64,000 nt of DNA, taken from NCBI GenBank assembly GCA_965263175.1, contig OZ253587.1, positions 136,105 to 200,104 of the forward strand, given 5' to 3'. The position numbers were made by a program, and so were the translations under genes. This DNA is from Chloroflexota bacterium. GTDB taxonomy: Bacteria > Chloroflexota > UBA11872. The notes below the pieces were generated by a model that was not told the DNA's origin, made no database searches, and saw only the letters and a list, made by a program, of their open reading frames with translations. Of the stretch, positions 6,977 to 61,614 are shown in pieces. How positions within the stretch are numbered: the stretch's first letter is position 1; every line of letters starts with the position of its first letter.

Positions 6977-7311
6977 CGTCGGCAGCCTCCGACGCCCGCC
7001 CGGTCGGCGCGAGCACTCCAGCGGTTGAATGACCGGTGGCCGTGGGCCCTGGTTCCTGCCTCGGGCAAGGTGTGCGTCGTTGCACTGGATGCTGCCGTCC
7101 TTGCGTCGGCGGCCACGGTCCCTCGCTCGGCTATCGAGGAGATTGCCGCCACCGCCGGTCACCCGATCACCTCGCGGCGCCTGGAGCAAATTGACCCGTG
7201 ACCCAGCCGACCGTCAGCCTCCAGCACGTGTTGCCGGGCGCCGCTCTGGGCAGTGGGTCATTTTGATCGCATCCCTCTCCACGAAGCGAGCTGTCATCTT
7301 TTCCCTCTCAT

Positions 7312-7434
7312 GAGACCTTTGCACAACGCCCTTCGTCCGCGAAGGTGCGGCCCGCTCTTGCTCCCTCTCCCTGTGGGAGAGGGTTGGGGTGAGGGTCTTC
7401 CGGGCAACAGTCCCCCGGATTACGCAAAGGTCTC
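7312..7434. mobile_element. MITE-like element, full copy, about 123 bp, with TIRs GAGACCTTTGC...GCAAAGGTCTC
   Basis: Terminal inverted repeats plus an internal perfect 9-bp hairpin, CCCTCTCCC-TGT-GGGAGAGGG. The same family recurs at least six more times in the window. Confidence 0.75.
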
Positions 7435-7556
7435 TCCTGGGGGAGAGGGTTAGAGCCTGCCCCGGACGCGATCCGGGGGTGAGGGGTCTTCGCGGCTCAC
7501 AACTCAAAGTGACCCACTACCCCGCTCTGGGCATCGAGGCCTCAGACCGCGCAGAT

Positions 7557-17290: not shown

Positions 17291-17375
17291 ACCGAACGCC
17301 TTCCCCTGAAAACCGAGTCGTACCTACATGGCGCCCCGCAGCCTCAGCGGGCATGCCGTTTCGCGCTCCTTACCG

Positions 17376-17438
17376 GAGACCTTTGCCCAACGCCCCGCGT
17401 CCTCGACGGTGCGGCCCGCTCTTGCTCCCTCTCCCTGT
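17376..17438. mobile_element. MITE fragment (left half), interrupted by the IS5-family insertion
   Basis: GAGACCTTTGCCCAACGCC...CTCTTGCTCCCTCTCCCTGTG, followed directly by the IS terminal repeat. Confidence 0.65.
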
Positions 17439-18628
17439 GGAGACCTTTGCTTAACTGCGGCATGCACGGCCGAGGGGGTGAGATCGGGGCCAAACGGCGG
17501 CCAGCGGCGGCCACAACGGCCGGGCGCCGGGGGATCGTCGGGCGGTCCCGTGGGGTTCCCCCGCCGCGACGGCGCACGGATCCCACGTTAGCCACCGGCC
17601 AGCGCCTGCAAGCGGCTCGCGCGCCGCAGGTTGTAGGCCATACATTTGAACCACAGTTCCACCGCGTTCCGCGCCAGCCCCAGGTAGCGCACGGTCCGGT
17701 ACCCGTAGCTCCGCTTCAACGTCCCAAAGACGTGCTCCACCGGTGCCCGCACCTTCCCGATCAGCGCATTGCGCCGCTGCTGCCAGGAGGGCAGCCCGCG
17801 CTGGTGCTTGTGCGAGCGGTGCATGATCCGGTCGTTAATCCCCTGCGCCCGCAACCGCGCCCGCCGGGCCTTGGACTCGTAGGCCTTGTCCGCGTAGACC
17901 GCCCGCTCGTCGCCGCTGATCAACGTGTCCGCCACCTCGCTTTCGTTCACGTGCGCCGGCGTCAGCACGGCTCGCCGGATCAGCCCCGACGCCGCATCGA
18001 CCCCCAGGTGCGCCTTGTAGCCGAAGGGGGCGCGCCCACCTTTGCGCGTCCAACTCGCCTCCGGGTCGGTGGCACTGCCCGCCCCCGGCCCCTCGTCCAT
18101 CGACGGCCGCCGCGCCTGCGCCGCCACCAGCGTCGCGTCCAGGAGCGTGCCCGCCTTGACCAGCCAGCCGGCGGCGTCCACTTGCCGGGTCACCTCGGCG
18201 AACAAGCACTCGCCCAAGCCCCGGTCCGCCAGCGCGGTCCGAAAGCGGCTGATCGTCGAGTGGTCGGGCACCGGGTCCTGCAGGCCCAGCCCGACGAAGC
18301 GCCGGAACGACAGCCGGTCCCAGAGCGCCGCCTCGATCTCGGGGTCGGAGGCCTGGTACCACTGCTGCAACAGCAACACCTTCACCATCAGCAGCGGCGG
18401 ATAGCTGGGCCGCCCCTCGGGGGCGGCGTAGATGTCGCTGACCACGACCGCGAGCCGCTCCCAGTCCACGACCTCGTGGAGCTGGTCCAGCCGCGCGTTA
18501 CGGCCCACCGGCGGCGGCAACCACGCGTCCACGAACGAGGCGTCCCCTACCTGTCGATGCATGGGCCATCTCCACCAAAGTCCCGTCGTCCCCATGGTGG
18601 CCGCATAGCCCAGTTATGCAAAGGTCTC
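17439..18628. mobile_element. IS5-family insertion sequence (about 1.19 kb), copy 1
   Basis: Imperfect TIRs GGAGACCTTTGCTTAACTGCGGCATGC / GGAGACCTTTGCATAACTGGGCTATGC (the right TIR read as reverse complement). Flanked by the 6-bp direct repeat CCTGTG. Encodes one DDE transposase. Confidence 0.7.
17588..18595 (-). CDS. IS5 family DDE transposase
   Basis: N-terminus YPPLLMVKVLLLQQWYQASDPEIEAALWDRLSFRRFVGL (InsH-N/DUF772-like). C-terminus VEHVFGTLKRSYGYRTVRYLGLARN. 335 aa. Confidence 0.8.
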   Translation of the reverse strand: MGTTGLWWRWPMHRQVGDASFVDAWLPPPVGRNARLDQLHEVVDWERLAVVVSDIYAAPEGRPSYPPLLMVKVLLLQQWYQASDPEIEAALWDRLSFRRFVGLGLQDPVPDHSTISRFRTALADRGLGECLFAEVTRQVDAAGWLVKAGTLLDATLVAAQARRPSMDEGPGAGSATDPEASWTRKGGRAPFGYKAHLGVDAASGLIRRAVLTPAHVNESEVADTLISGDERAVYADKAYESKARRARLRAQGINDRIMHRSHKHQRGLPSWQQRRNALIGKVRAPVEHVFGTLKRSYGYRTVRYLGLARNAVELWFKCMAYNLRRASRLQALAGG

Positions 18629-18857
18629 CCTGTGGGAGAGCAACTGTGTGGCACGTCAAACGCCAATGGACCCTGCCGCTCTTTCTCCTTCTCCCTTGAG
18701 GGAGAAGGCTGGGATGAGGGTGGCTGCTGCCTCCAGCAACCACGCCAAATCGGCAGCAACCCGCCGCCCCTTCGCCGCCTCTTGCTCCCGCTCCCTGTGG
18801 GAGAGGGTTGGGGTGAGGGTCTTCCGGGCAACCCACACGGGGTTACGCAAAGGTCTC
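18629..18857. repeat. tandem MITE-core variants (a divergent core followed by a right-half MITE ending in GCAAAGGTCTC)
   Basis: CGCTCTTTCTCCTTCTCCCTTGAGGGAGAAGGCTGGGATGAGGG parallels the canonical core CGCTCTTGCTCCCTCTCCCTGTGGGAGAGGGTTGGGGTGAGGG. The canonical right end lies at 18776-18857. Confidence 0.55.
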
Positions 18858-18960
18858 TACAGGCGGCACGCCAATCAGCGGCTGGATTCTCACCCGCCCG
18901 GCTGTCGGCGTCGCGTTCAATCGCACTGGCGCGATAGGGCGCGCAGCTCCACCGAACCTG

Positions 18961-20559: not shown

Positions 20560-21357
20560 ATGTCGTACGACAGCTTTGTTGCGTCGAGAGAGGCTGACGT
20601 GGCGGACAACACCATCGCCCTCGAGTTGCACGGTTCCGACTTTGTCCTAGACGACTTGGGCACAGCGGTCGAGCACTTTCGGGGGCTCCTAAGCGACTTG
20701 GCGACCGAAGTGGCCGAGGGTGTCGTGGTTACCTGACGGCTTGGCCGTCTCGGGACCGGAAGCATCGTCGCCGAAGTTCGCTGCGAAGCCGAAGATCCCA
20801 CGGCGGTAGACCGGGTCATCGCCGCCTACGACTGCGTCGGCGCGGCCCTGGCCAATGGCGAGCCCATTCCTTATTCAGAGGCTATCGTGGCGCACACAGA
20901 CCGCCTGACCGGCCTGATTAACGGTCGAGTCACGTCGGTCCACTTCAGAACCAGGGGCCAGGTGCACGAGGTTCAACAGCCCGCGCCGAGCGCGCTCGCG
21001 GAACAAGACCCGCACCTGGACTCGTTCGGCGCGGTCGAAGGCATGGTCGACACGCTGGCTTGGCGCCGCGGGATTCGATTCGTTGTCTATACGGACGACG
21101 AAGCGCGTGGCGTTCCCTGTTACATGAGCCTCGAGGACGAGGCAAAGATGGCGGGGCTCTGGCGCAAGCGTGTGCGCGTCGAGGGACTGCTCCGGCGCGA
21201 TTCGAACACGGGCTTGCCCTTGTCCATTCGTGACGTGACCAACATTGAGGTCCTCGAACCGCCAGCCGCCGAGCCCGAGGACCTCTGGGGCATCCTGCCA
21301 ACCGTTGGCGACCGCAAGCCGGAGGAGATCATCCGAGCGGGGTGGGATGGCGTCTGA
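20560..21357 (+). pseudogene. upstream partner of the PIN toxin, 265 codons in one frame interrupted by a single in-frame TGA at 20734-20736. The track ORF 20887..21357 is the part after the stop.
   Basis: ATG at 20560, then the TGA, then the same frame continues into the conserved module DSFGAVEG...RKRVRVEGLLRRDS...EEIIRAGWDGV. The stop overlaps the PIN start (ATGGCGTCTGA). Confidence 0.4.
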
Positions 21358-21826
21358 CCGTCCACGGCTCTATTGGGACTCGTGTTGCTTCATCTCATAC
21401 CTCAACGGGGACGCCACACGTTCAGAACTGCGCACGCTCATGGCTGATGCCCAGGCCGGCGGCGTGCTGATCGTCACCTCGGCTATTTCGGTCGCGGAAG
21501 TGGCGTACGTTGCGCCGGAGTCGCCGGGCCGCCCGCTGGATCCAGATGTTGAGCGCCGGATCGAAGACATGTGGCGCTGGCGGCAGGCTATTCGGCTGGT
21601 CGAAGTCCAAGCCGGCCTCGCCGCACGTGCGCGAACCCTGCTTCGCCACGCGCTAACAAACGGCTGGGAACGGAACCCTCGCGATGCGATTAATCTCGCC
21701 TCGGCCCGGCAAGTGTCCGCATCGACGGTTCACACCTACGACGAGCGATGGGACCGTTACGCGCAGGTCATCGGCAGAAACATCGAGCGCCCAGATCTGC
21801 TATATGTGTCGCAGGCCGCGCCATAA
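21347..21826 (+). CDS. PIN domain protein (VapC-like toxin)
   Basis: MASDRPRLYWDSCCFISYLNGD... has the PIN acidic motif (D of LYWDS). Translationally coupled to the upstream gene by an 11-nt overlap. Confidence 0.6.
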   Translation: MASDRPRLYWDSCCFISYLNGDATRSELRTLMADAQAGGVLIVTSAISVAEVAYVAPESPGRPLDPDVERRIEDMWRWRQAIRLVEVQAGLAARARTLLRHALTNGWERNPRDAINLASARQVSASTVHTYDERWDRYAQVIGRNIERPDLLYVSQAAP

Positions 21827-21999: not shown

Positions 22000-22033
22000 G
22001 AGACCTTTGCACAACGCCCTTCGTCCGCGAAGG
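22000..22033. mobile_element. MITE left part, split by the IS1595-family insertion. The right part is at 24817-24914.
   Basis: GAGACCTTTGCACAACGCCCTTCGTCCGCGAAGG followed by the IS inverted repeat. The MITE resumes at ...CCGCGAAGGTGCGGCCC at 24817. Confidence 0.65.
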
Positions 22034-22061
22034 GGCTTATAGCGATAGCTAGCCAAACCGT

Positions 22062-22226
22062 CTAATCCGCGCGGGCCGCATCGCGCCGCGCCTGGGCCTC
22101 GCGCTCGAAGTCCCATTCGGCTTTCGGCGGCCCCTGCATAATGGCGCGCGCGATATTCTCCGGCGTGTCGGGGATTGGTTCGGGCAGCGGCTTGGGCGGG
22201 CGGCCGCGCGTGCGCTTCTTCGTCAT
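22062..22226 (-). CDS. small basic protein (54 aa) with an AT-hook-like RGRPPK motif, translationally coupled (ATGA overlap) to the methyltransferase
   Basis: MTKKRTRGRPPKPLPEPIPDTPENIARAIMQGPPKAEWDFEREAQARRDAARAD. The ATG overlaps the methyltransferase TGA. Not present in the ORF track because it is shorter than 60 aa. Confidence 0.35.
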   Translation of the reverse strand: MTKKRTRGRPPKPLPEPIPDTPENIARAIMQGPPKAEWDFEREAQARRDAARAD

Positions 22227-23782
22227 ACGAGCCTCATTTGCATCGGCTTGCCGGTGTACGGGTCGGCCATCAACGGCAAGACGGGCGGGAGCTGGTTGAA
22301 GTAGTCGGCCATGGACCAGCGTTGCATCCGCGGGTAGGCCATGCCGCCGACCTGAATCGTGCCCATGCCGGCCGTCTCGGTTCGCGCGGCGTGCGTGTCT
22401 ACGCGATCCACGGTGAGATAGCAGCCGAGGGCCGCGCGGTCACGGGCGATGACGTGGTTGAAGTCGCGCAAGTTGCCGAGGCTGAACGCGCCGCCCTTGA
22501 CTTGAGCGAGCGCGAGCCGCGTCACGTCGGCCTCGGGTTGCTCCCAGACCGTGCCCCGGCCGTCCACGCCACCATCCGCCACCTGCTTCGTATTGGGCAC
22601 AAAGCCATTAAGCCGGGTGACCGCGCAGGTCTCGAACGCGAACGGACGTTCGGCGGCCAGCTTGGATGCGCCCGCCAGGTCGTAGGGGATGCCGTAGGCG
22701 GGAATGCTTGGGTCTTGGAGCCGCCGGTCGCGGATCACGTCAATGGCAAAGGGCGAGATATCGACGCCAAGCCACGGGCGGCCCAACTTGTGCGCAGCCT
22801 CGACGGTCGTGCCGCAGCCGCAGAACGGGTCAAGCACAACGCCATCCCTTGGGCTGGACGCGGCGATCACACGCTCAAGCAATGCACGCGGTTTCTGGGT
22901 CGCGTAGCCGAGGCGCTCTTTTCCAAGAGCCACCGGGATGTCACTCCATAGATTGCTCACCGCCACGCCGTCCCATTCGTCACGGTACTGCTTGCGAAAC
23001 GGCTTGTTATTGGCGTTGTAGTGGATGCGGTTTTCGGCATGCAGGCGCTTGAGGTTGGCTCGACTGACACGCCAGCCGTGCGGCGGGTTGTGCCCGTTCC
23101 ATTCGTATTTCGGTGAGGCATGGAGACCTGCATCGCTGTACAGGTCAGCCACGGCTCGATAGACCCCTTGCTCATCGCGATGCTTGAACGGTCGCATGCC
23201 AGGCGTCTCTTTACGGACGCGCGGGATGGTCACGACGTGCTGCGGCTTGGCGTAAAACAAGACGAGGTCGGTCACCGTCCCGAACGTCCTGGTCGGACCA
23301 CGTGTGCCCTTGACGCCTGACCGCTCCCAAACGATCTGATTCCTGAAGTTCGCAGCACCGAAAATGCCATCAAGCAGGATTTTCAAGTAATGGCCTGCGG
23401 TCGGGTCACAGTGCAAGTAGAGGCCGCCCGTCGTCTTCAGCAGCCGATGGCAGTGTTCGAGCCGTTCGGCCATGTAGGTCAGGTAGCTGAGCATCCCCGA
23501 CGGCCCCAGGATGCTGTACAGGCCGACGATGGCGGCGTGCGCGGGCCGTGCGATGGCTGAACGGTAGGCGTCCATGCGTTCGGCCGCGTCCGCGTCCCAG
23601 TGCCACGTATCGGTGAAGGCGCGGTATTGCGCGCCGCCGACCGTCTTGCCAAACAGCACGTTGTAGTTCGATTGCGAGTTGAACGGCGGGTCGAGGTACA
23701 CGAGGTCCACGGTCTGATCGTCCCACTCGCGCATCCATTCCAGGCAATCGCCGTAGTACAGCGCGTTCAGCGTGGGGTGCAT
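22223..23782 (-). CDS. beta-class N6-adenine/N4-cytosine DNA methyltransferase (N6_N4_Mtase) with a C-terminal Mrr-like (PD-(D/E)xK) nuclease-type domain
   Basis: Motif IV VYLDPPFNS near the N-terminus, then motif I VLDPFCGCGTT. The C-terminus has ADGGVDGRG...(23 aa)...LAQVKGG, resembling the Mrr_cat DGGxDG...QxK signature. Confidence 0.6.
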   Translation of the reverse strand: MHPTLNALYYGDCLEWMREWDDQTVDLVYLDPPFNSQSNYNVLFGKTVGGAQYRAFTDTWHWDADAAERMDAYRSAIARPAHAAIVGLYSILGPSGMLSYLTYMAERLEHCHRLLKTTGGLYLHCDPTAGHYLKILLDGIFGAANFRNQIVWERSGVKGTRGPTRTFGTVTDLVLFYAKPQHVVTIPRVRKETPGMRPFKHRDEQGVYRAVADLYSDAGLHASPKYEWNGHNPPHGWRVSRANLKRLHAENRIHYNANNKPFRKQYRDEWDGVAVSNLWSDIPVALGKERLGYATQKPRALLERVIAASSPRDGVVLDPFCGCGTTVEAAHKLGRPWLGVDISPFAIDVIRDRRLQDPSIPAYGIPYDLAGASKLAAERPFAFETCAVTRLNGFVPNTKQVADGGVDGRGTVWEQPEADVTRLALAQVKGGAFSLGNLRDFNHVIARDRAALGCYLTVDRVDTHAARTETAGMGTIQVGGMAYPRMQRWSMADYFNQLPPVLPLMADPYTGKPMQMRLV

Positions 23783-23785
23783 GGC

Positions 23786-24730
23786 CTAGGCGATGAGGCT
23801 CGCGCCGGTGAGTTGCTTGCCCTCGAATCCCCGCACCATCGCGGTCATCTGATCGATGGTGTCGAGGCTGCGCTGGTTGTAGCGGCCCTCGAACTCGCGC
23901 ACGTAGCGATGCAAGTGCTTCGGACTCATCTTGTGGTACACGCCGTTGTGACCGCGCTTCAACAGGCTCCAGAAGCTTTCCAGGCCGTTCGTGTGGGCCT
24001 GATCGTTCACCCACTGGTGCGTGCCATGCCGGACGGTTTCGTGATAGGGCAGGCCGCGATAGGCCAGCGCTTCGTCCGTATAGACCAACGCGCCGGGGTG
24101 CGTCCGCTCGCGCACGAACGTCCGCAACGTGGGGCCGGTGGTGTTCGGTACCACGTCGGCGCTCACGCGGCCTGTGGCGCGGTCCCTGACGCCAGCGACC
24201 GGCGTCTTGCCCACGGTGCCGCCACCGGCGTAGAGCTTCTTGTCGGCGTGCTTGTTCTTCTCCAAGCCGCCCACGTACGTTTCGTCGGCTTCGACCGGGC
24301 CGGTGAACGCGGGGTTTTCGTCGCGCCAGGTCTCGCGGATGCGGTGCGCGAGACGCCAGGCCGACGTGTAGGCGATGCCGAGGTCGCGATGCAGCTTCAT
24401 GGCCGCCGTGCCCTTGATGCCGGTGGACATCAAGTAGACCGCGATGGCCCAGACCTGGTAGTCGAGATTCGAGTTGGCCATGAGCGTGTCGGTCTTGACC
24501 GAGAAGTGCTTGCGGCAGGTGCGGCAGCGAAACGGCTGTGGCTTGCGGGATTTGACATCGGCCACGTTCTCCGACTCGCAGCGGGGGCAGCGTACGCCAT
24601 CGGGCCATCGGGTCTCAACGAACCAGACTTCGGCGGCGTCATTGTCCGGGAACATCCGCGTCACGTCCAAGAGGGACAGACCCTTGCGCTCGGCTCGTCC
24701 CGGCCCCTTGCGGCTCATGTTGCGGCTCAT
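23786..24730 (-). CDS. IS1595 family (ISXO2-like) transposase
   Basis: N-terminal zinc ribbon CPRCESENV...RCRTCRKHF, then the VEADETYVGG...KNKHADKKL hallmark of DDE_Tnp_IS1595. Confidence 0.75.
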   Translation of the reverse strand: MSRNMSRKGPGRAERKGLSLLDVTRMFPDNDAAEVWFVETRWPDGVRCPRCESENVADVKSRKPQPFRCRTCRKHFSVKTDTLMANSNLDYQVWAIAVYLMSTGIKGTAAMKLHRDLGIAYTSAWRLAHRIRETWRDENPAFTGPVEADETYVGGLEKNKHADKKLYAGGGTVGKTPVAGVRDRATGRVSADVVPNTTGPTLRTFVRERTHPGALVYTDEALAYRGLPYHETVRHGTHQWVNDQAHTNGLESFWSLLKRGHNGVYHKMSPKHLHRYVREFEGRYNQRSLDTIDQMTAMVRGFEGKQLTGASLIA

Positions 24731-24816
24731 CGCTCACCCCTTCGAATTGATACACAATTCTAGCCACCACTCGAAGGGATGTCAAGGCTTTTGGCTAGCA
24801 TTCGCTATAAGCCCCT

Positions 24817-24914
24817 CCGCGAAGGTGCGGCCCGCTCTTGCTCCCTCTCCCTGTGGGAGAGGGTTGGGGTGAGGGTCTTCCGGGCAACAGTCCCTCGGGT
24901 TACGCAAAGGTCTC
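24817..24914. mobile_element. MITE right part (continuation of the 22000-22033 fragment)
   Basis: ...GCGAAGGTGCGGCCCGCTCTTGCTCCCTCTCCCTGTGGGAGAGGGTTGGGGTGAGGGTCTTCC...GCAAAGGTCTC. Confidence 0.65.
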
Positions 24915-25028
24915 TACCTAGCGGCAGATTCCATGCCCAAGTCTGGTAGAGTTCTATTCTGTCCACGCAAATTGCCAGCCAACCATTGGCATCGCAGCCC
25001 GGCGGCAGCGACGGAGGAACGAGGAATA

Positions 25029-26954
25029 GTGTCAACATTTAAAGCGAATGCGTTCCTACTCAAGAATATTCTTGACAATGTTGCCAACGGTAGCATCCAA
25101 CTCCCCGACTTCCAGCGCGGCTGGGTGTGGGACGACGACCGAATAAAGGACCTGCTGGTCAGCATTTCGCGCGGCTTCCCTATCGGTGCCGTGATGACTC
25201 TCGATGCCGGTGGGGACTTGCGGTTTCGAAGCCGCTTAGTCGAGGGCGTGGATTCGAATGGCGACGATCAAGCATCCGAATACCTGCTGGATGGCCAACA
25301 GCGTCTTACGTCGCTGTACCAGGCGCTGCGGTATGAAGGGCCGGTAGAAACCCGCCACCGACCTGGTGGAAGATGGGTCATCAAGCGATGGTATTACATC
25401 GATATGCAAAAGATTCTGAATCCCCTGATCGATCTGGAGGACACCGTCGTTAGCGTTCCTGAAGACCGAGTTGTCAGGTCAAATTTCGGCCGTGATATCA
25501 CTTTGGATCTGTCCTCGTCTGACTTCGAATTCAAGCATCATATGCTGCCCACCGAGAAAGTCATGAATATCATGGATTGGATGCTTGGATACCTTGGTTA
25601 TTGGAAGGATCGCGGCGAGCATCCGGAGGGTGACCCGGTTGCTTTCTTCACCCAGTTCAAGGCTGCCGTGCTGGACAACTTCACCGACTACCAGTTGCCG
25701 GTCATCAGCCTTGGAAAAGGGACGTCCAAGGAGGCTGTTTGCACGGTCTTCGAAAAGGTCAACACCGGCGGCGTAACTTTGAATGTGTTCGAGTTGGTGA
25801 CCGCCGCCTTCGCTGCGGAAGTGGGCGAGGACGATTTCTCGCTGCGGGACGACTGGGAAGCGCGAAGCAGGCGGCTACACTCGGAATTCGGCGTGCTTCA
25901 AGGCGTCGGCGCTGATCAATTCCTGCAAACGGTGACACTGCTGGCGACCCAAGCACGGCGCAGGCGAGCTACTTCTGAGACTCCGTCGAGTCAACTTCCC
26001 GGTATCGGCTGTAGGCGAGCAGACATCCTCAACCTGACGTTCAGCGACTACCAGACATGGGCCGACCGAGTGGAAGAGGGATTCAGGGTCGCCGCAAAGT
26101 ACCTGCGCGGCCAATTCGTTTTCACCAGGTACAACGTGCCTTACAACACCCAACTGGTTCCCCTGGCAGCGTTGTACGTTGAGTTGGGCAAGGAGTTGGC
26201 GCCCGCCAACGCGCAGGATAAGCTGAACCGCTGGTTCTGGTGCGGCATCTTCAGCGAAGCCTATGGCGGCGGCGGTGAGACTCAGTTTGCTCGTGACCTC
26301 GAACAGGTTGCCAACTACATCCGAGGCGGCGCCGAACCGGAACTTGTTAGCCAGGCGAGCTTTGTTCCCGAGCGGCTGTTGTCGTTGAGAACACGCAACA
26401 GCTCTGCCTACAAGGGTCTGTACGCGCTGCAAATGAAAAGCAACGCGGCTGACTGGCGCAGCGATGGACCCTTGACCTTCGCCACCATCCATGACGAGAA
26501 CATCGATATCCACCATATTTTCCCGGTCGCCTGGTGCAGGCATGCCGATCCGGAGGTGCCAAGACACCTGTACGACTCGGTAATCAACAAGACGCCGATT
26601 GACGCGCAGACGAACCGAATCATCGGTGGTAAGGCGCCGTCCATCTACTTACCCCGCTTGCGCCGTCGTGATATCGGCGAAGAAAAATTGAATCGAATTC
26701 TTGAATCGCATTGGATCGATCCCAAGCTGCTTGAGAGTGATCTTTTTGGCGACTGCTTCGTCGAGCGCGGTCAAGCAATGCTCGACTTGATCAACCGCAC
26801 GATGGGTAAGCCAGCCGTCGATGGGCGTCAGGTCTTTCGCGATGCGCTGGACTCCGCCGGTCTGGCTGAGCAGGACAGCGATGACGAGGTTGAGTACGAT
26901 CCCATCGGCGACAGCGCCTTTGGCGACGAGACACTGGGCGGCGACAATTCATAA
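25029..26954 (+). CDS. GmrSD-like type IV restriction endonuclease candidate (N-terminal DUF262, C-terminal DUF1524/HNH-like)
   Basis: N-terminus LPDFQRGWVWDDDRIKDLLVSI...DGQQRLTSLY (DUF262 DGQQR motif). C-terminus DIHHIFPVAW (DUF1524 His-Me finger). GTG at 25029 with a GGAGGAA RBS. The upstream ATG at 24933 is an alternative start. Confidence 0.65.
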   Translation: MSTFKANAFLLKNILDNVANGSIQLPDFQRGWVWDDDRIKDLLVSISRGFPIGAVMTLDAGGDLRFRSRLVEGVDSNGDDQASEYLLDGQQRLTSLYQALRYEGPVETRHRPGGRWVIKRWYYIDMQKILNPLIDLEDTVVSVPEDRVVRSNFGRDITLDLSSSDFEFKHHMLPTEKVMNIMDWMLGYLGYWKDRGEHPEGDPVAFFTQFKAAVLDNFTDYQLPVISLGKGTSKEAVCTVFEKVNTGGVTLNVFELVTAAFAAEVGEDDFSLRDDWEARSRRLHSEFGVLQGVGADQFLQTVTLLATQARRRRATSETPSSQLPGIGCRRADILNLTFSDYQTWADRVEEGFRVAAKYLRGQFVFTRYNVPYNTQLVPLAALYVELGKELAPANAQDKLNRWFWCGIFSEAYGGGGETQFARDLEQVANYIRGGAEPELVSQASFVPERLLSLRTRNSSAYKGLYALQMKSNAADWRSDGPLTFATIHDENIDIHHIFPVAWCRHADPEVPRHLYDSVINKTPIDAQTNRIIGGKAPSIYLPRLRRRDIGEEKLNRILESHWIDPKLLESDLFGDCFVERGQAMLDLINRTMGKPAVDGRQVFRDALDSAGLAEQDSDDEVEYDPIGDSAFGDETLGGDNS

Positions 26955-28219: not shown

Positions 28220-28253
28220 AAAGGCAAGTAAGCTAAAGGCCCGCCCCTATTGT

Positions 28254-28375
28254 GAGACCTTTGCACAACGCCCTTCGTCCGCGAAGGTGCGGCCGCTCTT
28301 GCTCCCTCTCCTCGGGGAGAGGGTTGGGGTGAGGGGTCTTCCGGGCAACAGTCCCTCGGGTTACGCAAAGGTCTC
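28254..28375. mobile_element. MITE-like element, full copy
   Basis: GAGACCTTTGCACAACGCCC...GGGTTACGCAAAGGTCTC. Same family as 7312-7434. Confidence 0.75.
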
Positions 28376-28416
28376 TATTGTGCGGGGGCGGGCCACTCAA
28401 CCTGAAAGGGGCTGAT

Positions 28417-41011: not shown

Positions 41012-41099
41012 GGACGTACGCCAGAACGGAATCGGCGGAAGCACCCGCGCGCGCGCTGCGGAGAGCAGCTTTGGGGTGCAGGTGACCCGTGCCTCGTCA

Positions 41100-42291
41100 G
41101 AGACCTTTGCAAAACCCTGGCGTGAGGTGGATCGTGGAGACCATCGTTCCCGCCGCCGAGAGTCGTGGCCATGCACCGTTCCACCCATTCGCCGGAACTG
41201 ATCGACGCCTGGCTGCCGCCGCGGGTGGGCCGCAACGCCCGGCTGGAGCGGCTGACGCAGCTCATCGACTGGGCGCCGCTGGAGGCGCTGGTGGCGGACC
41301 TGCACGCCGCGCCGGTCGGGCGGCCGAGTTATCCGCCGCTGCTGATGGTCAAGGTGCTGCTGCTCCAGCAGTGGTATCAGGCCTCGGACCCGGCGATGGA
41401 AGAGGCGTTGTGGGAGCGGCTGTCGTTCCGGCGCTTCGTGGGGTTGGGGCTGCAGGACGACGCGCCCGATCACTCGACGATCAGCCGCTTCCGCACGCGG
41501 CTGACGGCGGCGGGCGTGGCCGAGCCGCTGTTCGCGGCGGTGGAGCAGCAACTGGCCGCGCGCGGGCTGCTGGTCATGCAGGGCACGCTGGTGGACGCGA
41601 CGTTGGTGGACGCGCAGGTGCGCCGCCCGCAAGGGGGCGCCACCGGCGCGGGCAGCCCCCGGGACCCGGACGCGGCCTGGGCCCGGCGGGGCCGGCAGGC
41701 GCGCTTTGGCTACAAGCTGCACCTGGGGGTGGACGCCGAGTCGGAACTGGTCCGGCGCGCGGTGCTGACCCCGGCGAACGTGAACGAGACCCAGGTGGCG
41801 GACGAGCTGATCGCGGGGGACGAAGGGGCGGTGTACGGGGATGCGGCCTATGGCACGCACGCGCGCAGCGCCCGGCTGCGGGCGCGGGGGATCGCGGATC
41901 GGCTGATGCGACGGCCCACCAAACATCAGCCCCGGCTGGGCCCGGCGGCGCGCCGCCGCCACGCCCGGATCGAACAGGTGCGACGGCCGGTGGAGCACGT
42001 GTTTGGGACGTTGAAGCGCTCGTACGGCTACCAGCGGGTGCGCTACCGGGGCCTGGCCCGGAACACGACCGAGATGTGGTTCAAGCTGCTGGCCTACAAC
42101 CTGCGCCGCGCGGACCGCTTGCTGGCCGGGGCCCCGACCTCGCCCTAGGCGCGCTGCGCCCTCAACCAGGCGCGCAGGCCTGCGGGCAGGCCCCGGCGAG
42201 CGGCGACCCAGGCTGCCCCACCCCGCGCCACCCTCTCGCGGGTCGGGCGTCGCCCCTCGGCGCTGCGCAGGGCGCATTATTCAAAGGTCTC
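41100..42291. mobile_element. IS5-family insertion sequence, copy 2 (divergent from copy 1)
   Basis: TIRs GAGACCTTTGCAAAACCC... / ...TTCAAAGGTCTC. Flanked by the 6-bp direct repeat TCGTCA. About 1.19 kb. Confidence 0.65.
41165..42148 (+). CDS. IS5 family DDE transposase
   Basis: YPPLLMVKVLLLQQWYQASDPAMEEALWERLSFRRFVGL and VEHVFGTLKRSYGYQRVRYRGLARN. 327 aa. About 75% identical to the copy-1 transposase. Confidence 0.8.
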   Translation: MAMHRSTHSPELIDAWLPPRVGRNARLERLTQLIDWAPLEALVADLHAAPVGRPSYPPLLMVKVLLLQQWYQASDPAMEEALWERLSFRRFVGLGLQDDAPDHSTISRFRTRLTAAGVAEPLFAAVEQQLAARGLLVMQGTLVDATLVDAQVRRPQGGATGAGSPRDPDAAWARRGRQARFGYKLHLGVDAESELVRRAVLTPANVNETQVADELIAGDEGAVYGDAAYGTHARSARLRARGIADRLMRRPTKHQPRLGPAARRRHARIEQVRRPVEHVFGTLKRSYGYQRVRYRGLARNTTEMWFKLLAYNLRRADRLLAGAPTSP

Positions 42292-42294
42292 TCG

Positions 42295-44127
42295 TCAGGC
42301 AGATGACGGTGCCACTTCCTCGTAGCACTCTCGGTCCAAGCAGTCAATTAAGGGCGTGTGCGCGTTGGCGCAGCAGACGATCGAAAGCGAACGGCTGGAG
42401 CGCGTGATTGCCACGTAGAGCTGCGCGCGTTGCCGGTCGATCGGGAATCTCTCAGCCACGGGGTCAAGCAGGTACACCGACGCGAAGTCCAGCCCTTTCG
42501 CGGAGTGCACCGTGGCCAACGCTACAGAGGCACCGTCCGGCGGAGCGTTGCGGTCCACCACTCGCACGGGTACACCTGCCCGCTCCAGGGCTACCCTCGC
42601 CTCGTCGCGCTGCGGGTTCGAACCCGTCAGCACTGCAATCTGGCTGACAGGCCGTCCCGCCTCAATCTCCGCGAGTACCGACTCGACCACGAACGCCAGG
42701 GCTCGAGGCCCCTCAGCGCACCTAGCCAGCCGCGGCAGCGGGCCTTCGCGCTTAGGCGTTGACAACTCTTCAACGTCGCGGCGTACCTCGTCGACGTCTG
42801 CGTAGATTGAGGCGGCCAGGGCGTGAAGCTGACGGGTCGAGCGGTAGGGCTCGCGCAAGACGTGGGTCCGACCTCTACGCGACCCGAATTCGGGGGCAGC
42901 CCACCGGTAGCGTCCGGCGTAGAGCGCCTGTGCCGGGTCAGCCAGCACCAGAAGCCGCGTCTCAGCCCCAGCCACAAGCGCCTTGGCCAGCCGGGCCATC
43001 ACCGGCGAGCAGTCCTGACCCTCGTCGACAATCACGTCACGGTAGCGAGGCGGATTCGGATCCTTCGCAATCGCGGCGCGCGCCCGTTCGATTAGGTCAT
43101 TCCAACTGTCCTGCGCGTCCCTCCGGTGCCGGATCCGCTGATAGAGCGCCCAGACCGCCCGGCGTTGAGGCTTGAACAGACGCACCAACCCCTCACTCTC
43201 CGGCCTATTGAGGTCAAGGTAGGGCTGTACCTCGTCGAACTGGTTGGGGCCAAGGACATCGCTAATCTCTGTGAAGAGATCGTCCTCCGCGAGCCTCTCG
43301 AGCGCGCGGCGGTCGGCATCCGGCAGCTGCCGCACTTCCTGGGCTAGCACTGTGCGGAGCCAGCGGTCATACACAGCCGGATTTGCCGAGTAGCTGTCTA
43401 CACGCCGTCGAAGGTACCGCCCAGCCCAGCCGTGGAAGGTGTTTACCTCGATCTGCCGCGACCTCTCGGGTGGGGCGAGCGTTCTGATTGCTTCTCGCAC
43501 GGTGCGCATAAGCACTCGGTTGAAGCAGAGATACAGCACGCGTCCGTCTTCAAAGCCTGGCAGCAGGCTCTGGCGCAGCGCTCGGTGGATTGCGATCGAA
43601 GTCTTGCCAGTGCCTGCGCCAGCCGTGACGAAGGACAGCTTCGTTTGGTTGGTTTTGCTCGCGTCAAAGGTGACTAGGAAACGCTGTGCCTCATCGAGGG
43701 CCGCGAAGTAATGCTGGTACCCGCGTGCCGCCAGCGCACCCAATTTGTCTGGCTCCGTTATCGGGGTAGGGTCCTGCGAGGCAACGCTTGGAACCGGCTC
43801 GTGTCGCTGAAGAACCTTGCTGCGCCTAGGAATCTCCTGAAGGTGCCTATCCTTCCACGCGTAGGCCTCGTCGTGTTTGCCGACCCAAAGAAGCACGACT
43901 CGATTCTCAGTCTTGGCAAAGACCAGCCGATACTCCTTCGTGACCCGGGCTGAACGCACCTCCAGGCCGCAGTCGAACCGATGCAGCAGCTCGTCGTTTA
44001 GTCCGGCGCGCTTGTCACCCGCTACAAGGCGACGCGCGACCATGAGCGTTTGGTTTTCGAAGCGGCCGCTTAGTCTGTTGAGCGCATCAGAGAAGTCGTG
44101 TCCGCGCCAAAGTTCAAAGTCCGCCAT
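42295..44127 (-). CDS. UvrD/Rep-like SF1 helicase with N-terminal RelE/ParE-like domain
   Basis: N-terminus RVTKEYRLVFAKTENRVVLLWVGKHDEAY (RelE/ParE fold signature). Walker A TAGAGTGKTSIA, Walker B VIVDEGQDCS, motif VI VHSAKGLDFASVYLL. A GGGAGG RBS is present. Confidence 0.6.
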   Translation of the reverse strand: MADFELWRGHDFSDALNRLSGRFENQTLMVARRLVAGDKRAGLNDELLHRFDCGLEVRSARVTKEYRLVFAKTENRVVLLWVGKHDEAYAWKDRHLQEIPRRSKVLQRHEPVPSVASQDPTPITEPDKLGALAARGYQHYFAALDEAQRFLVTFDASKTNQTKLSFVTAGAGTGKTSIAIHRALRQSLLPGFEDGRVLYLCFNRVLMRTVREAIRTLAPPERSRQIEVNTFHGWAGRYLRRRVDSYSANPAVYDRWLRTVLAQEVRQLPDADRRALERLAEDDLFTEISDVLGPNQFDEVQPYLDLNRPESEGLVRLFKPQRRAVWALYQRIRHRRDAQDSWNDLIERARAAIAKDPNPPRYRDVIVDEGQDCSPVMARLAKALVAGAETRLLVLADPAQALYAGRYRWAAPEFGSRRGRTHVLREPYRSTRQLHALAASIYADVDEVRRDVEELSTPKREGPLPRLARCAEGPRALAFVVESVLAEIEAGRPVSQIAVLTGSNPQRDEARVALERAGVPVRVVDRNAPPDGASVALATVHSAKGLDFASVYLLDPVAERFPIDRQRAQLYVAITRSSRSLSIVCCANAHTPLIDCLDRECYEEVAPSSA

Positions 44128-61446: not shown

Positions 61447-61484
61447 CGGGCCGGGCCGCTTTTGGCGACCCGGCCCGCTGGGGA

Positions 61485-61593
61485 GAGACCTTTGCGTAAC
61501 CCGGGGGCGGTTGCCCGGAAGACCCTCACCCACAGGGAGAGGGAGCAAGAGCCGCCGCACCTTCGAGGACGCGGGGCGATTTGCAAAGGTCTC
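61485..61593. mobile_element. MITE-like element (shorter variant, 109 bp, opposite orientation)
   Basis: GAGACCTTTGCGTAACCCGGGGG...GCAAAGGTCTC. The paralogous locus at about 63725 lacks it (empty site). Confidence 0.75.
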
Positions 61594-61614
61594 TGGGGAG
61601 GGAGGGGATGTGGA

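Follow-up and report, generated by a model that had tools for sequence, protein, structure and literature searches.

A 64-kb window of Chloroflexota DNA (by the window we mean the whole stretch that was analysed) holds several copies of a short repeat with an internal hairpin, and the ends of this repeat resemble those of two IS5-family insertion sequences in the same window. The locus raises the question of what kind of element the repeat is, whether it has moved, and which transposase would move it. The original prediction, made from the letters of the window, had described a non-autonomous derivative of the resident IS5-family element. Here we examine the copies, their relation to the two insertion sequences, the orthologous loci of related genomes and the sites into which both types of element have inserted.

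Results

Copies of the element in the window

With an nhmmer profile made from copies of several genomes, we obtained matches at 7312-7434, 17376-17443, 18673-18721 (a divergent core), 18779-18857, 22000-22035, 24808-24914, 28254-28375 and 61485-61593 (reverse strand), and so recovered every piece of the predicted TIR-bounded element with its internal hairpin, at coordinates within one or two bases. The seven copies that had been counted in 64 kb are five family insertions, three of which are intact, one split by an IS5-family element and one split by an IS1595-family element (Table 1). The lower count follows from the pieces at 17376-17439 and 18776-18857, which are the two ends of a single element, c2: in a related MAG contig (L048), which is syntenic with 12.9-19.4 kb of the window at ~83-94% identity, the ortholog (L048:6019-6140) is contiguous, 122 bp long and has the same flanks. 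The c2 pieces therefore count as one insertion, and the total is five. L048 also holds a tandem pair.

Like a multi-copy bacterial MITE, the five insertions sit at unrelated loci; the copies are bounded by terminal inverted repeats at intergenic sites and are discrete units, not fragments of a larger repeated gene. Besides these, there are two related units that bear the core, at 7249-7521 (MITE-H) and 18641-18775.

Table 1. Coordinates of the MITE copies, of the related unit MITE-H and of the insertion sequences in the window
Feature	Coordinates	Strand	Description
MITE-H, host of c1	7249-7521	.	Second family, similar core, different ends GGYAGTGGGTCAYTTTGA
MITE copy c1	7312-7434	+	Intact, 123 bp; ends GAGACCTTTGCACAAC ... 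GATTACGCAAAGGTCTC; central hairpin 7363-7383
c2 left part	17376-17439	+	Left end, first hairpin region, left arm of central hairpin
IS_A	17440-18628	-	IS5 family, 1189 bp; ends GAGACCTTTGCTTAAC / GAGACCTTTGCATAAC
c2 remainder	18629-18857	+	Three segments
c3 left part	22000-22031	+	
IS1595-family element in c3	22032-24815	-	2784 bp; ends GGGGCTTATAGCG; interrupts the MITE family, not a member
c3 right part	24816-24914	+	Perfect central hairpin 24843-24863
MITE copy c4	28254-28375	+	Intact, 122 bp; 6-bp duplication TATTGT at 28248-28253 and 28376-28381
IS_B	41100-42291	+	IS5 family, 1192 bp; ends GAGACCTTTGCAAAAC / GAGACCTTTGAATAAT
MITE copy c5	61485-61593	-	109 bp; 6-bp duplication TGGGGA at 61479-61484 and 61594-61599

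Several of these features are nested. The hairpin loop of c2 is occupied by IS_A, with the 6-bp duplication CCTGTG at 17434-17439 (the copy included in the left part of c2) and 18629-18634; of the span 17439-18628 first assigned to IS_A the end holds, whereas the start is 17440 and the length 1189 bp. The remainder of c2 comprises a duplication copy with the right hairpin arm (18629-18640), an extra core-bearing unit (18641-18775) with the divergent hairpin CTCCTTCTCCC-TTGA-GGGAGAAGG and a 27-bp repeat of the hairpin segment on its flanks, and the right part with the right end (18776-18857); the 5-bp flanks of c2 as a whole are TACCG (17371-17375), paired with TACAG (18858-18862). The element within c3 carries a transposase gene (23786-24730) and a passenger N6/N4 DNA methylase gene (22223-23782) and is flanked by the 8-bp duplication TCCGCGAA at 22024-22031 and 24816-24823. 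Both pieces of c3 had been predicted, at 22000-22033 and 24817-24914, and this duplication sets their boundaries at 22000-22031 and 24816-24914; a matching target duplication around c3 as a whole is absent. Copy c1 is nested in the hairpin loop of MITE-H, with the right flank TCCTGG, a degenerate left flank and no clean target duplication, and MITE-H itself has the 8-bp target duplication CCGCTCTG at 7241-7248 and 7522-7529. Copies had been predicted inside other mobile elements, as c1 is, but for c2 and c3 the order is reversed, with other mobile elements inside the MITE. Copy c5 lies between the 3' ends of convergent genes and has a 14-bp internal deletion, with a hairpin that still forms with one mismatch.

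Structure of the MITE

The MITEs are bounded by a 16-bp inverted-repeat consensus, GAGACCTTTGC-NN-AAC, in which positions 12-13 are variable, and GAGACCTTTGC is perfect at both ends in 5/5 window copies, giving the terminal inverted repeats of a bacterial MITE (left end GAGACCTTTGCACAAC, right end GAGACCTTTGCGTAAC). In the window, which has a G+C content of 66%, GAGACCTTTGC has 13 exact sites and 15 at no more than one mismatch, against ~0.93 expected (0 of 100 shuffles reach 15), and the internal hairpin CCCTCTCCC-NNN-GGGAGAGGG has four sites at no more than two mismatches, against an expectation of 0. A different definition of the ends, AGACC...GGTCT with duplications of 7-8 bp, was rejected; for the few sites at which C is missing at -1 or G at +1, GAGACC...GGTCTC is the only definition that fits.

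The window units are 109-123 bp long and non-coding, with just spurious high-GC ORFs across them, and relatives have other size classes of 121 bp, 144 bp and roughly 200-270 bp. From left to right, a unit consists of the left end GAGACCTTTGC-NN-AAC, a first hairpin region that is variable, a GCTCTTGCTCCCTCTCC-loop-GGAGAGGG segment, a G-rich tail (TTGGGGTGAGGGTCTTCC), a third hairpin (CCGGGCAAC...CCCGG) and the right end GTTACGCAAAGGTCTC, and the G-rich arm of the core is GGGAGAGGGTTGGGGTGAGGG. The predicted single-strand fold of the MITE is a stem that joins its two ends and encloses three hairpins (-35.9 kcal/mol as DNA, z = -5.2). When the window was searched against Rfam at the gathering score and at relaxed E-values, it gave a tRNA only, and the MITE region gave nothing at E < ~0.2. 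Across the three internal hairpins in 25 copies of many genomes, compensatory change was observed in 1/32 predicted pairs and the first hairpin region was variable; the right half of this alignment is invariant because the collecting pattern forced the right end, and it was excluded as evidence. Covariation of the 25 copies shows no sign of an RNA structure under selection.

Partner IS5-family elements

Both insertion sequences have the layout of the IS5 family (~1-1.5 kb), with a single ORF of 324-335 aa and imperfect inverted repeats of 16-25 bp. The transposase of IS_A is encoded at 17588-18562 (324 aa from a conserved MHRQ start, the longest ORF reaching 18595) and that of IS_B at 41171-42148 from a conserved MHR start (ORF from 41165). 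Both are full-length ORFs with the Pfam domains DUF772 and DDE_Tnp_1, and their scores against NCBIfam NF033581, 'IS5 family transposase', are those of IS5-type DDE transposases (299.5 and 285.5 bits, cut-off 140); the motifs DAT, (A/G)D(K/A)AY and VEHVFGTLK were read by eye from the translations. The two proteins are 66% identical, and we therefore treat IS_A and IS_B as two IS species within one clade. An exact-protein look-up with the 335-aa and 324-aa versions of the IS_A transposase found no record, and homologues, of which the database holds 4174 at E <= 1e-40, were used in its place. IS_B is flanked by the 6-bp duplication TCGTCA at 41094-41099 and 42292-42297. The IS5 subgroup of the IS5 family makes a 4-bp target duplication; the duplications associated with the elements described here are 5 or 6 bp, both lengths being unambiguous, which bears on subgroup placement and not on family membership.

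The ends of the insertion sequences agree with the GAGACCTTTGC of the MITE at 11/11 positions, except for the right end of IS_B at 10/11 (GAGACCTTTGA, one mismatch), and AAC is present at positions 14-16 in both IS_A ends and in the left end of IS_B. A TIR of 11-12 bp shared with both IS5-family copies had been proposed; it is indeed shared, but it is longer, at 16 bp with positions 12-13 free, and the one mismatch in IS_B qualifies the identity. The right end of the MITE, GAGACCTTTGCGTAAC, matches IS_A at 15/16 positions, the right end of IS_B at 13/16 and IS_A-type relatives in other genomes (L051, L054) at 16/16. Since positions 12-13 are as variable among MITE copies as among the insertion sequences, a one-base difference in the end is not discriminating. 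When the interiors of MITE and IS were compared, similarity was found to end after the 16-bp termini, so descent of the MITE from the IS is not supported; an interior of ~90 bp that is unlike that of the IS is common to all copies and is present at unrelated loci in many genomes.

Distribution in other genomes

The exact right-end pattern of the MITE was found in at least 50 stretches of a genome collection, nearly all of them from Chloroflexota MAGs, with a few, among the matches listed, in bins labelled Gemmatimonadetes or Bryobacterales. One non-Chloroflexota bin match is identical, including its flanks, to a Chloroflexota contig and was probably mis-binned. As this pattern forced the right end, right-end conservation and per-genome counts are uninformative here. 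The profile gave 41 full-length and 124 partial hits in the window and 57 loci of ~25 MAGs, and MITEs and this type of IS are found together in the same sponge-associated Chloroflexota MAGs; the isolate names RHO, COS, CO36386, jk18x and Langseth are presumably those of sponge-microbiome studies. Viral contigs scanned for the right end of the MITE gave 0 matches. In the literature, a search for the core sequence of the MITE returned no paper, and one match for MITE, sponge and Chloroflexi was unrelated.

Filled and empty sites at orthologous loci

Comparison of filled and empty sites at orthologous loci shows directly that both the MITE and the IS have moved. The c5 site is empty in two relatives (L080 and L081), where a single copy of the 6-bp duplication remains: the relatives read ...CCCTCCC-TCCCCA-GCGGG... 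once, and the window reads TCCCCA-MITE-TCCCCA, with a 1-nt difference in a C-run. The gene beside c5 has orthologues at 93% and 89% amino-acid identity in these two genomes, and the convergent-gene spacer there, between NUDIX and LiaF, is 54 bp. IS_A is absent from the orthologous MITE of L048, whose hairpin is intact, and c1 together with the whole of MITE-H is absent from the orthologous L25-amt spacer of relatives (L078/L082). Another genome (L050) has, at a different site, a copy that matches c4 with 100% identity over 124 bp. The combination of filled or empty site and target duplication that characterizes a bacterial MITE was found for c4 (TATTGT) and c5 (TGGGGA); c1 and c3 are without clean duplications, and several copies in other genomes also lack matching ones.

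In the closest relative fetched, 24.7 kb of orthologous DNA (20.7 kb matching 0.2-16.6 kb of the window, and the c5 region) contained 0 copies, and it follows that at least two of the five window insertions are lineage-specific. The very high density that had been suggested for the family is, on this comparison, local: five copies in 64 kb is locally dense and says nothing of genome-wide density. For comparison, in a survey of 183,232 genomes most of those that bear MITEs had 11 different ones on average, and the highest number of MITEs was 468 (PMC11602168). The MITE/IS pair of the window, from uncultured sponge symbionts, has been active recently.

Target choice

Clean duplications flank 31 non-redundant insertions of MITEs and ISs; they measure 5 or 6 bp, and 6 bp for those in the window. 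Of the 31 insertions, 29 have a C directly to the left of the duplication and 29 a G directly to its right, and the flanks are pyrimidine-rich on the left and purine-rich on the right. MITEs and ISs choose the same kind of target, a short spacer C-(N5-6)-G that is C-rich on its left and G-rich on its right.

About half of the insertions went into the loop of a CCCTCTCC/GGAGAGGG hairpin, the hairpin that MITE-type units carry at their centre. When the arms were scored with a strict pattern, both were present in 15 of 28 end pairs and at least one in 24, compared with 0.07% of random window sites for both arms. Unrelated G+C-rich hairpins also serve as targets: c4 lies in the loop of GGCCCGCCCC/GGGGGCGGGCC (-15 kcal/mol) and IS_B in a small TGCCT/AGGCA hairpin. 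This arm-motif test and the per-position base count replaced simpler measures of hairpin targeting (fixed-offset pairs, perfect stems whose loop falls within the duplication, and minimum free energy with the loop at the site), which were uninformative; 30% of control sites pass them, because any 40-mer folds at 66% G+C and the stem often overlaps the duplication.

Most telling are the IS copies that were retrieved via the transposase protein only, so that their flanks played no part in the selection. These lie in the loops of CYCTCYCC/GGRGAGRG-type hairpins in L051 (CAGCG), L052 (TCCTGG, CTTGAG), L054/L055 (CGCTG) and L057 (CTCAAG), and ISs whose transposases are 68-70% identical to that of IS_A (L058-L077, some of them on JGI metagenome contigs) are also found in such loops (CAGAG, CAGTG, TTCCG, CTCGG). 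Hairpin loops contain IS_A and nearly all of the L051-L077 IS copies whose flanks are distinct, which is the pattern of REP targeting by IS1397; some of the mismatched flanks on metagenome contigs may be assembly chimeras. The hairpin units that serve as targets in more distant genomes are short, and GAGACC ends are not obvious at their borders. A longer IS end that would take in the hairpin arms was rejected, as the intervening 5-6 bp are direct rather than inverted repeats and an orthologous empty hairpin exists.

Discussion

We therefore arrive at a reading to which we assign a probability of roughly 0.8, namely that a non-coding MITE family is moved in trans by this clade of IS5-family transposases; trans-mobilisation is suggested by the shared ends, the duplication length and the target preference. 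Mechanistically, the 16-bp ends GAGACCTTTGC-NN-AAC would be the termini recognised by an IS5-family DDE clade that includes the intact IS_A and IS_B, and an IS transposase would bind the MITE ends in trans and then move the unit, making a staggered cut of 5-6 bp at the target. A symmetric transposase complex may read both arms, either as sequence or as structure, with a flexible spacing that would yield 5 or 6 bp. Much of the original prediction of a non-autonomous derivative mobilised in trans by an IS5-family transposase is supported by the sequence (the unit appears to be non-autonomous, with shared ends, equal duplication length, a common target and empty sites); the term 'derivative' is what we would drop, there being no likeness past 16 bp.

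The identity of the driver deserves separate consideration. GAGACCTTTGC(A) is a widespread IS5-family terminus, so the IS that drives the MITE could be a relative elsewhere in the genome rather than IS_A or IS_B. Taken further, the units would be true MITEs whose driver is another IS5-family element with GAGACCTTTGC ends, located elsewhere in the genome or lost, and their likeness to IS_A and IS_B would reflect a family-conserved terminus; ends of the GAGACCTTTGCA type in ISNme1 (Neisseria), and nearly identical ones in ISPg1/ISPg9 (Porphyromonas), are in keeping with this (PMC4596501), as are the 4174 transposase homologues and the 16/16 fit of the MITE right end to the L051/L054 ISs. We nevertheless consider such a driver unlikely, given that IS_A and IS_B are intact and have an equal duplication length, that the hairpin-loop target is common to IS_A-type copies and the MITE, and that positions 12-13 vary in the MITEs as they do in the ISs.

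Other explanations deny that the family is a transposase-driven MITE, or make its mobility secondary. The conserved core (hairpin and G-rich arm) might be a module selected by the host, such as a transcript-end or regulatory structure. Its strong predicted fold, the recurrence of the core architecture with different ends (in MITE-H, in the 18641-18775 unit and in short units of distant genomes) and the positions of c5 between convergent genes and of c4 in a terminator-like hairpin fit this idea, but a T-run after the hairpin is absent, the Rfam search gave no match, covariation is essentially absent, the first hairpin region is not conserved and the insertions are lineage-specific, being missing at the same genes in close relatives; taken together, these make a host-selected module very improbable. 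Still less probable is that each copy is an independent remnant, a solo-end pair left where a full-length IS lost its interior. The IS ends are the only part in common with the IS, as this would require, yet the shared ~90-bp interior, unlike that of the IS and found at unrelated loci in many genomes, contradicts it, and the identical copy at a different site in another genome, together with the empty site without any IS in close relatives, speaks against it as well. The likeness to REP/REPIN palindromes spread by a RAYT (Y1, IS200/IS605-like) transposase, with IS-like ends that are incidental, is again real: REPINs are likewise abundant intergenic G+C-rich hairpin repeats, and invasion by ISs is also known for REPs (PMC1525189, PMC3184786). 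The Chloroflexota family, unlike the REPIN/RAYT system, has 16-bp terminal inverted repeats identical to IS5 ends, target duplications of 5-6 bp and a clean empty site, and no link of the family to a Y1 transposase came to light. To our knowledge REPINs make no such target duplications, and we give this origin almost no weight.

Movement in trans by an IS5-family transposase, the reading we prefer, has close parallels. GAGACCTTTGCA is a known IS5-family terminus, and in Neisseria meningitidis ISNme1, with the end GAGACCTTTGCAAAA, is the proposed parent of the ATR MITE (PMC4596501). ATR has essentially the same ends as the Chloroflexota family and is likewise a small non-coding unit whose mover is thought to be an IS5-family transposase, whereas it is AT-rich, has an unrelated interior and belongs to another phylum. 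In Porphyromonas gingivalis, the MITEs BrickBuilt and MITEPgRS have the end motif GAGACCTTTGCA / GAGACCATTGCA, the latter being the end of ISPg1; only their ends match the resident IS5-family elements (ISPg1/ISPg4), and nesting in other mobile elements has been noted there too (PMC4596501). BrickBuilt differs in that it carries a minisatellite and its duplications vary in length and sequence, and hairpin-loop targeting is not reported for it.

The targeting also has precedents. Selective insertion into palindromic REP units is known for members of the IS3, IS110, IS4, IS256 and IS5 families (PMC1525189, PMC3184786). The IS5-family case is IS1106 of N. meningitidis, copies of which are associated with REP sequences and which is placed in a 'type 2' class, apart from the 'type 1' high-selectivity cases (PMC1525189); it is not reported as a loop insertion, whereas the Chloroflexota target hairpin lies inside the MITE itself. 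High selectivity for intergenic palindromic repeats as harmless landing sites is shared with IS1397 and ISKpn1 (IS3), ISRm22 (IS4), ISPa11, ISPpu9/10 and IS621 (IS110) (PMC3184786, PMC1525189), but these are mostly of other families, and the REPs are without the ends of the IS that targets them. The Chloroflexota repeat carries the IS's own ends and has the same duplications, and a single transposase type may be responsible both for the spread of the landing site and for insertion into it. MITE/IS5-family pairs and palindrome-targeting ISs are thus already known; what is new is hairpin-loop targeting across a clade and the presence of the target hairpin inside a unit that has the IS's own ends.

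Because the centre of the MITE carries the preferred target hairpin, ISs and MITEs pile into MITEs, as IS_A has into c2 and c1 into MITE-H. It can be argued further, at what we judge to be even odds, that an IS5 clade with the ends GAGAC(C/G)TTTGC, present in sponge Chloroflexota and other marine bacteria, targets a loop of the CCCTCTCC/GGAGAGGG type, that in Chloroflexota this hairpin has been packaged between the transposase's own ends, and that a single enzyme both multiplies landing pads and uses them. The spread of MITEs would in that case offer the ISs that move them a growing number of intergenic sites where insertion does no harm.

The locus changes no concept. It does offer a clean natural example of a MITE/IS pair with filled and empty sites, and a testable target rule, C-(N5-6)-G and preferably a hairpin loop, which accounts for the clusters of nested repeats at which the assemblies of these genomes break. 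The hairpin could serve as a defined target in studies of how IS5-family transposases choose their sites. Should the landing-pad reading be true, the clade may include a DDE transposase that reads a hairpin or palindrome with a flexible spacing of 5-6 bp, and the MITE and its ISs would form a self-reinforcing 'safe-haven' system, in which the IS would lower its own cost to the host by spreading its insertion sites.

Related units and a G-rich arm in the MITE neighbourhood

When the main MITE is set beside other units of the window (see table), a second MITE-like family, MITE-H, can be recognized. Its core, comprising the hairpin and the G-rich part, resembles that of the main MITE but its ends differ, and it carries an extra hairpin (CCCCGGA..TCCGGGG). 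MITE-H is flanked by the target duplication CCGCTCTG (7241-7248 and 7522-7529), and the orthologous L25-amt spacer of a relative (L078/L082) is without it. Single ends of the MITE-H type are present in seven contig stretches from other genomes or metagenomes (L015, L029, L030, L033, L039, L040 and L041).

A junction that recurs, GGGAGAG|CA(A/C)CTGTGTGG, marks the start of a third core-bearing unit; another such stretch, L052, has it twice (56-70 and 1375-1390). In the window this unit lies between two 27-bp copies of the hairpin segment of the MITE, CTCTTGCTCCC(T/G)CTCCCTGTGGGAGAG, the length of which far exceeds that of a normal target duplication. The right arm of the MITE hairpin is itself overlapped by a G-rich arm with four G runs, each of at least three G, separated by 2-3 nt; four such runs at this spacing match the textbook motif for G-quadruplex formation.

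Features of the window, with their coordinates
Feature	Position	Description
tRNA gene	444-516	Rfam, 63.7 bits
MITE-H, second MITE-like family	7249-7521	ends GGYAGTGGGTCAYTTTGA; 8-bp target duplication
G-rich arm of MITE	7375-7395, 24855-24875, 28315-28336	GGGAGAGGGTTGGGGTGAGGG
Third core-bearing unit	18641-18775	hairpin CTCCTTCTCCC-TTGA-GGGAGAAGG
IS1595-family element	22032-24815	DDE_Tnp_IS1595 + zinc ribbon

Tandem copies, mixed flanks and taxon labels

A related MAG contig carries, at L048:5888-6140, a head-to-tail pair of non-identical MITE copies with an 8-bp spacer, TCTCCTGG, between them. One 5-bp duplication, TACAG, encloses the pair; at this locus the window holds the second copy only. 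Several MITE copies have flanks that do not match, namely those at 7312-7434 and 22000..24914 in the window and those in L004, L015 and L049. The left flank of the L015 copy is like that of L032 and its right flank is like that of the window copy at 7312-7434, a mixture that suggests that MITE copies have recombined with one another. Among the loci L058-L077, IS copies that encode identical transposases have left and right flanks in shuffled combinations (the L071 copy, for example, joins the left flank of L070 to the right flank of L068). Either the IS copies have recombined with one another, or metagenome assembly produced chimeras where it crossed the repeat.

A 4.2-kb contig in a Gemmatimonadetes bin is probably mis-binned, because its MITE copy and flanks (L013:3195-3314) are identical to those of a Chloroflexota contig of 267 kb (L026:6603-6722) that came out of the same study. 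For the copy on a 16-kb contig from a Bryobacterales bin (L022), the choice is between mis-binning and inter-phylum transfer. At the empty sites in the relatives L080 and L081 the C run is five long, against four in the window in the region of 61479-61484, either a true indel or a homopolymer error of long-read assemblies.

The IS1595-family element and its surroundings

The tRNA gene is the sole Rfam match at gathering score within the 64-kb window. The IS1595-family element, with ends GGGGCTTATAGCG, an 8-bp duplication TCCGCGAA and an N6/N4 DNA methylase as its passenger gene, is inserted in the main-MITE copy at 22000..24914. Its neighbours are a PIN-domain gene on one side and a restriction gene of GmrSD type on the other (21245-21826 and 24933-26954), and numerous ORFs between 21 and 30 kb have no Pfam match. 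This part of the window, around the IS1595-family element, resembles an accessory or defence region.
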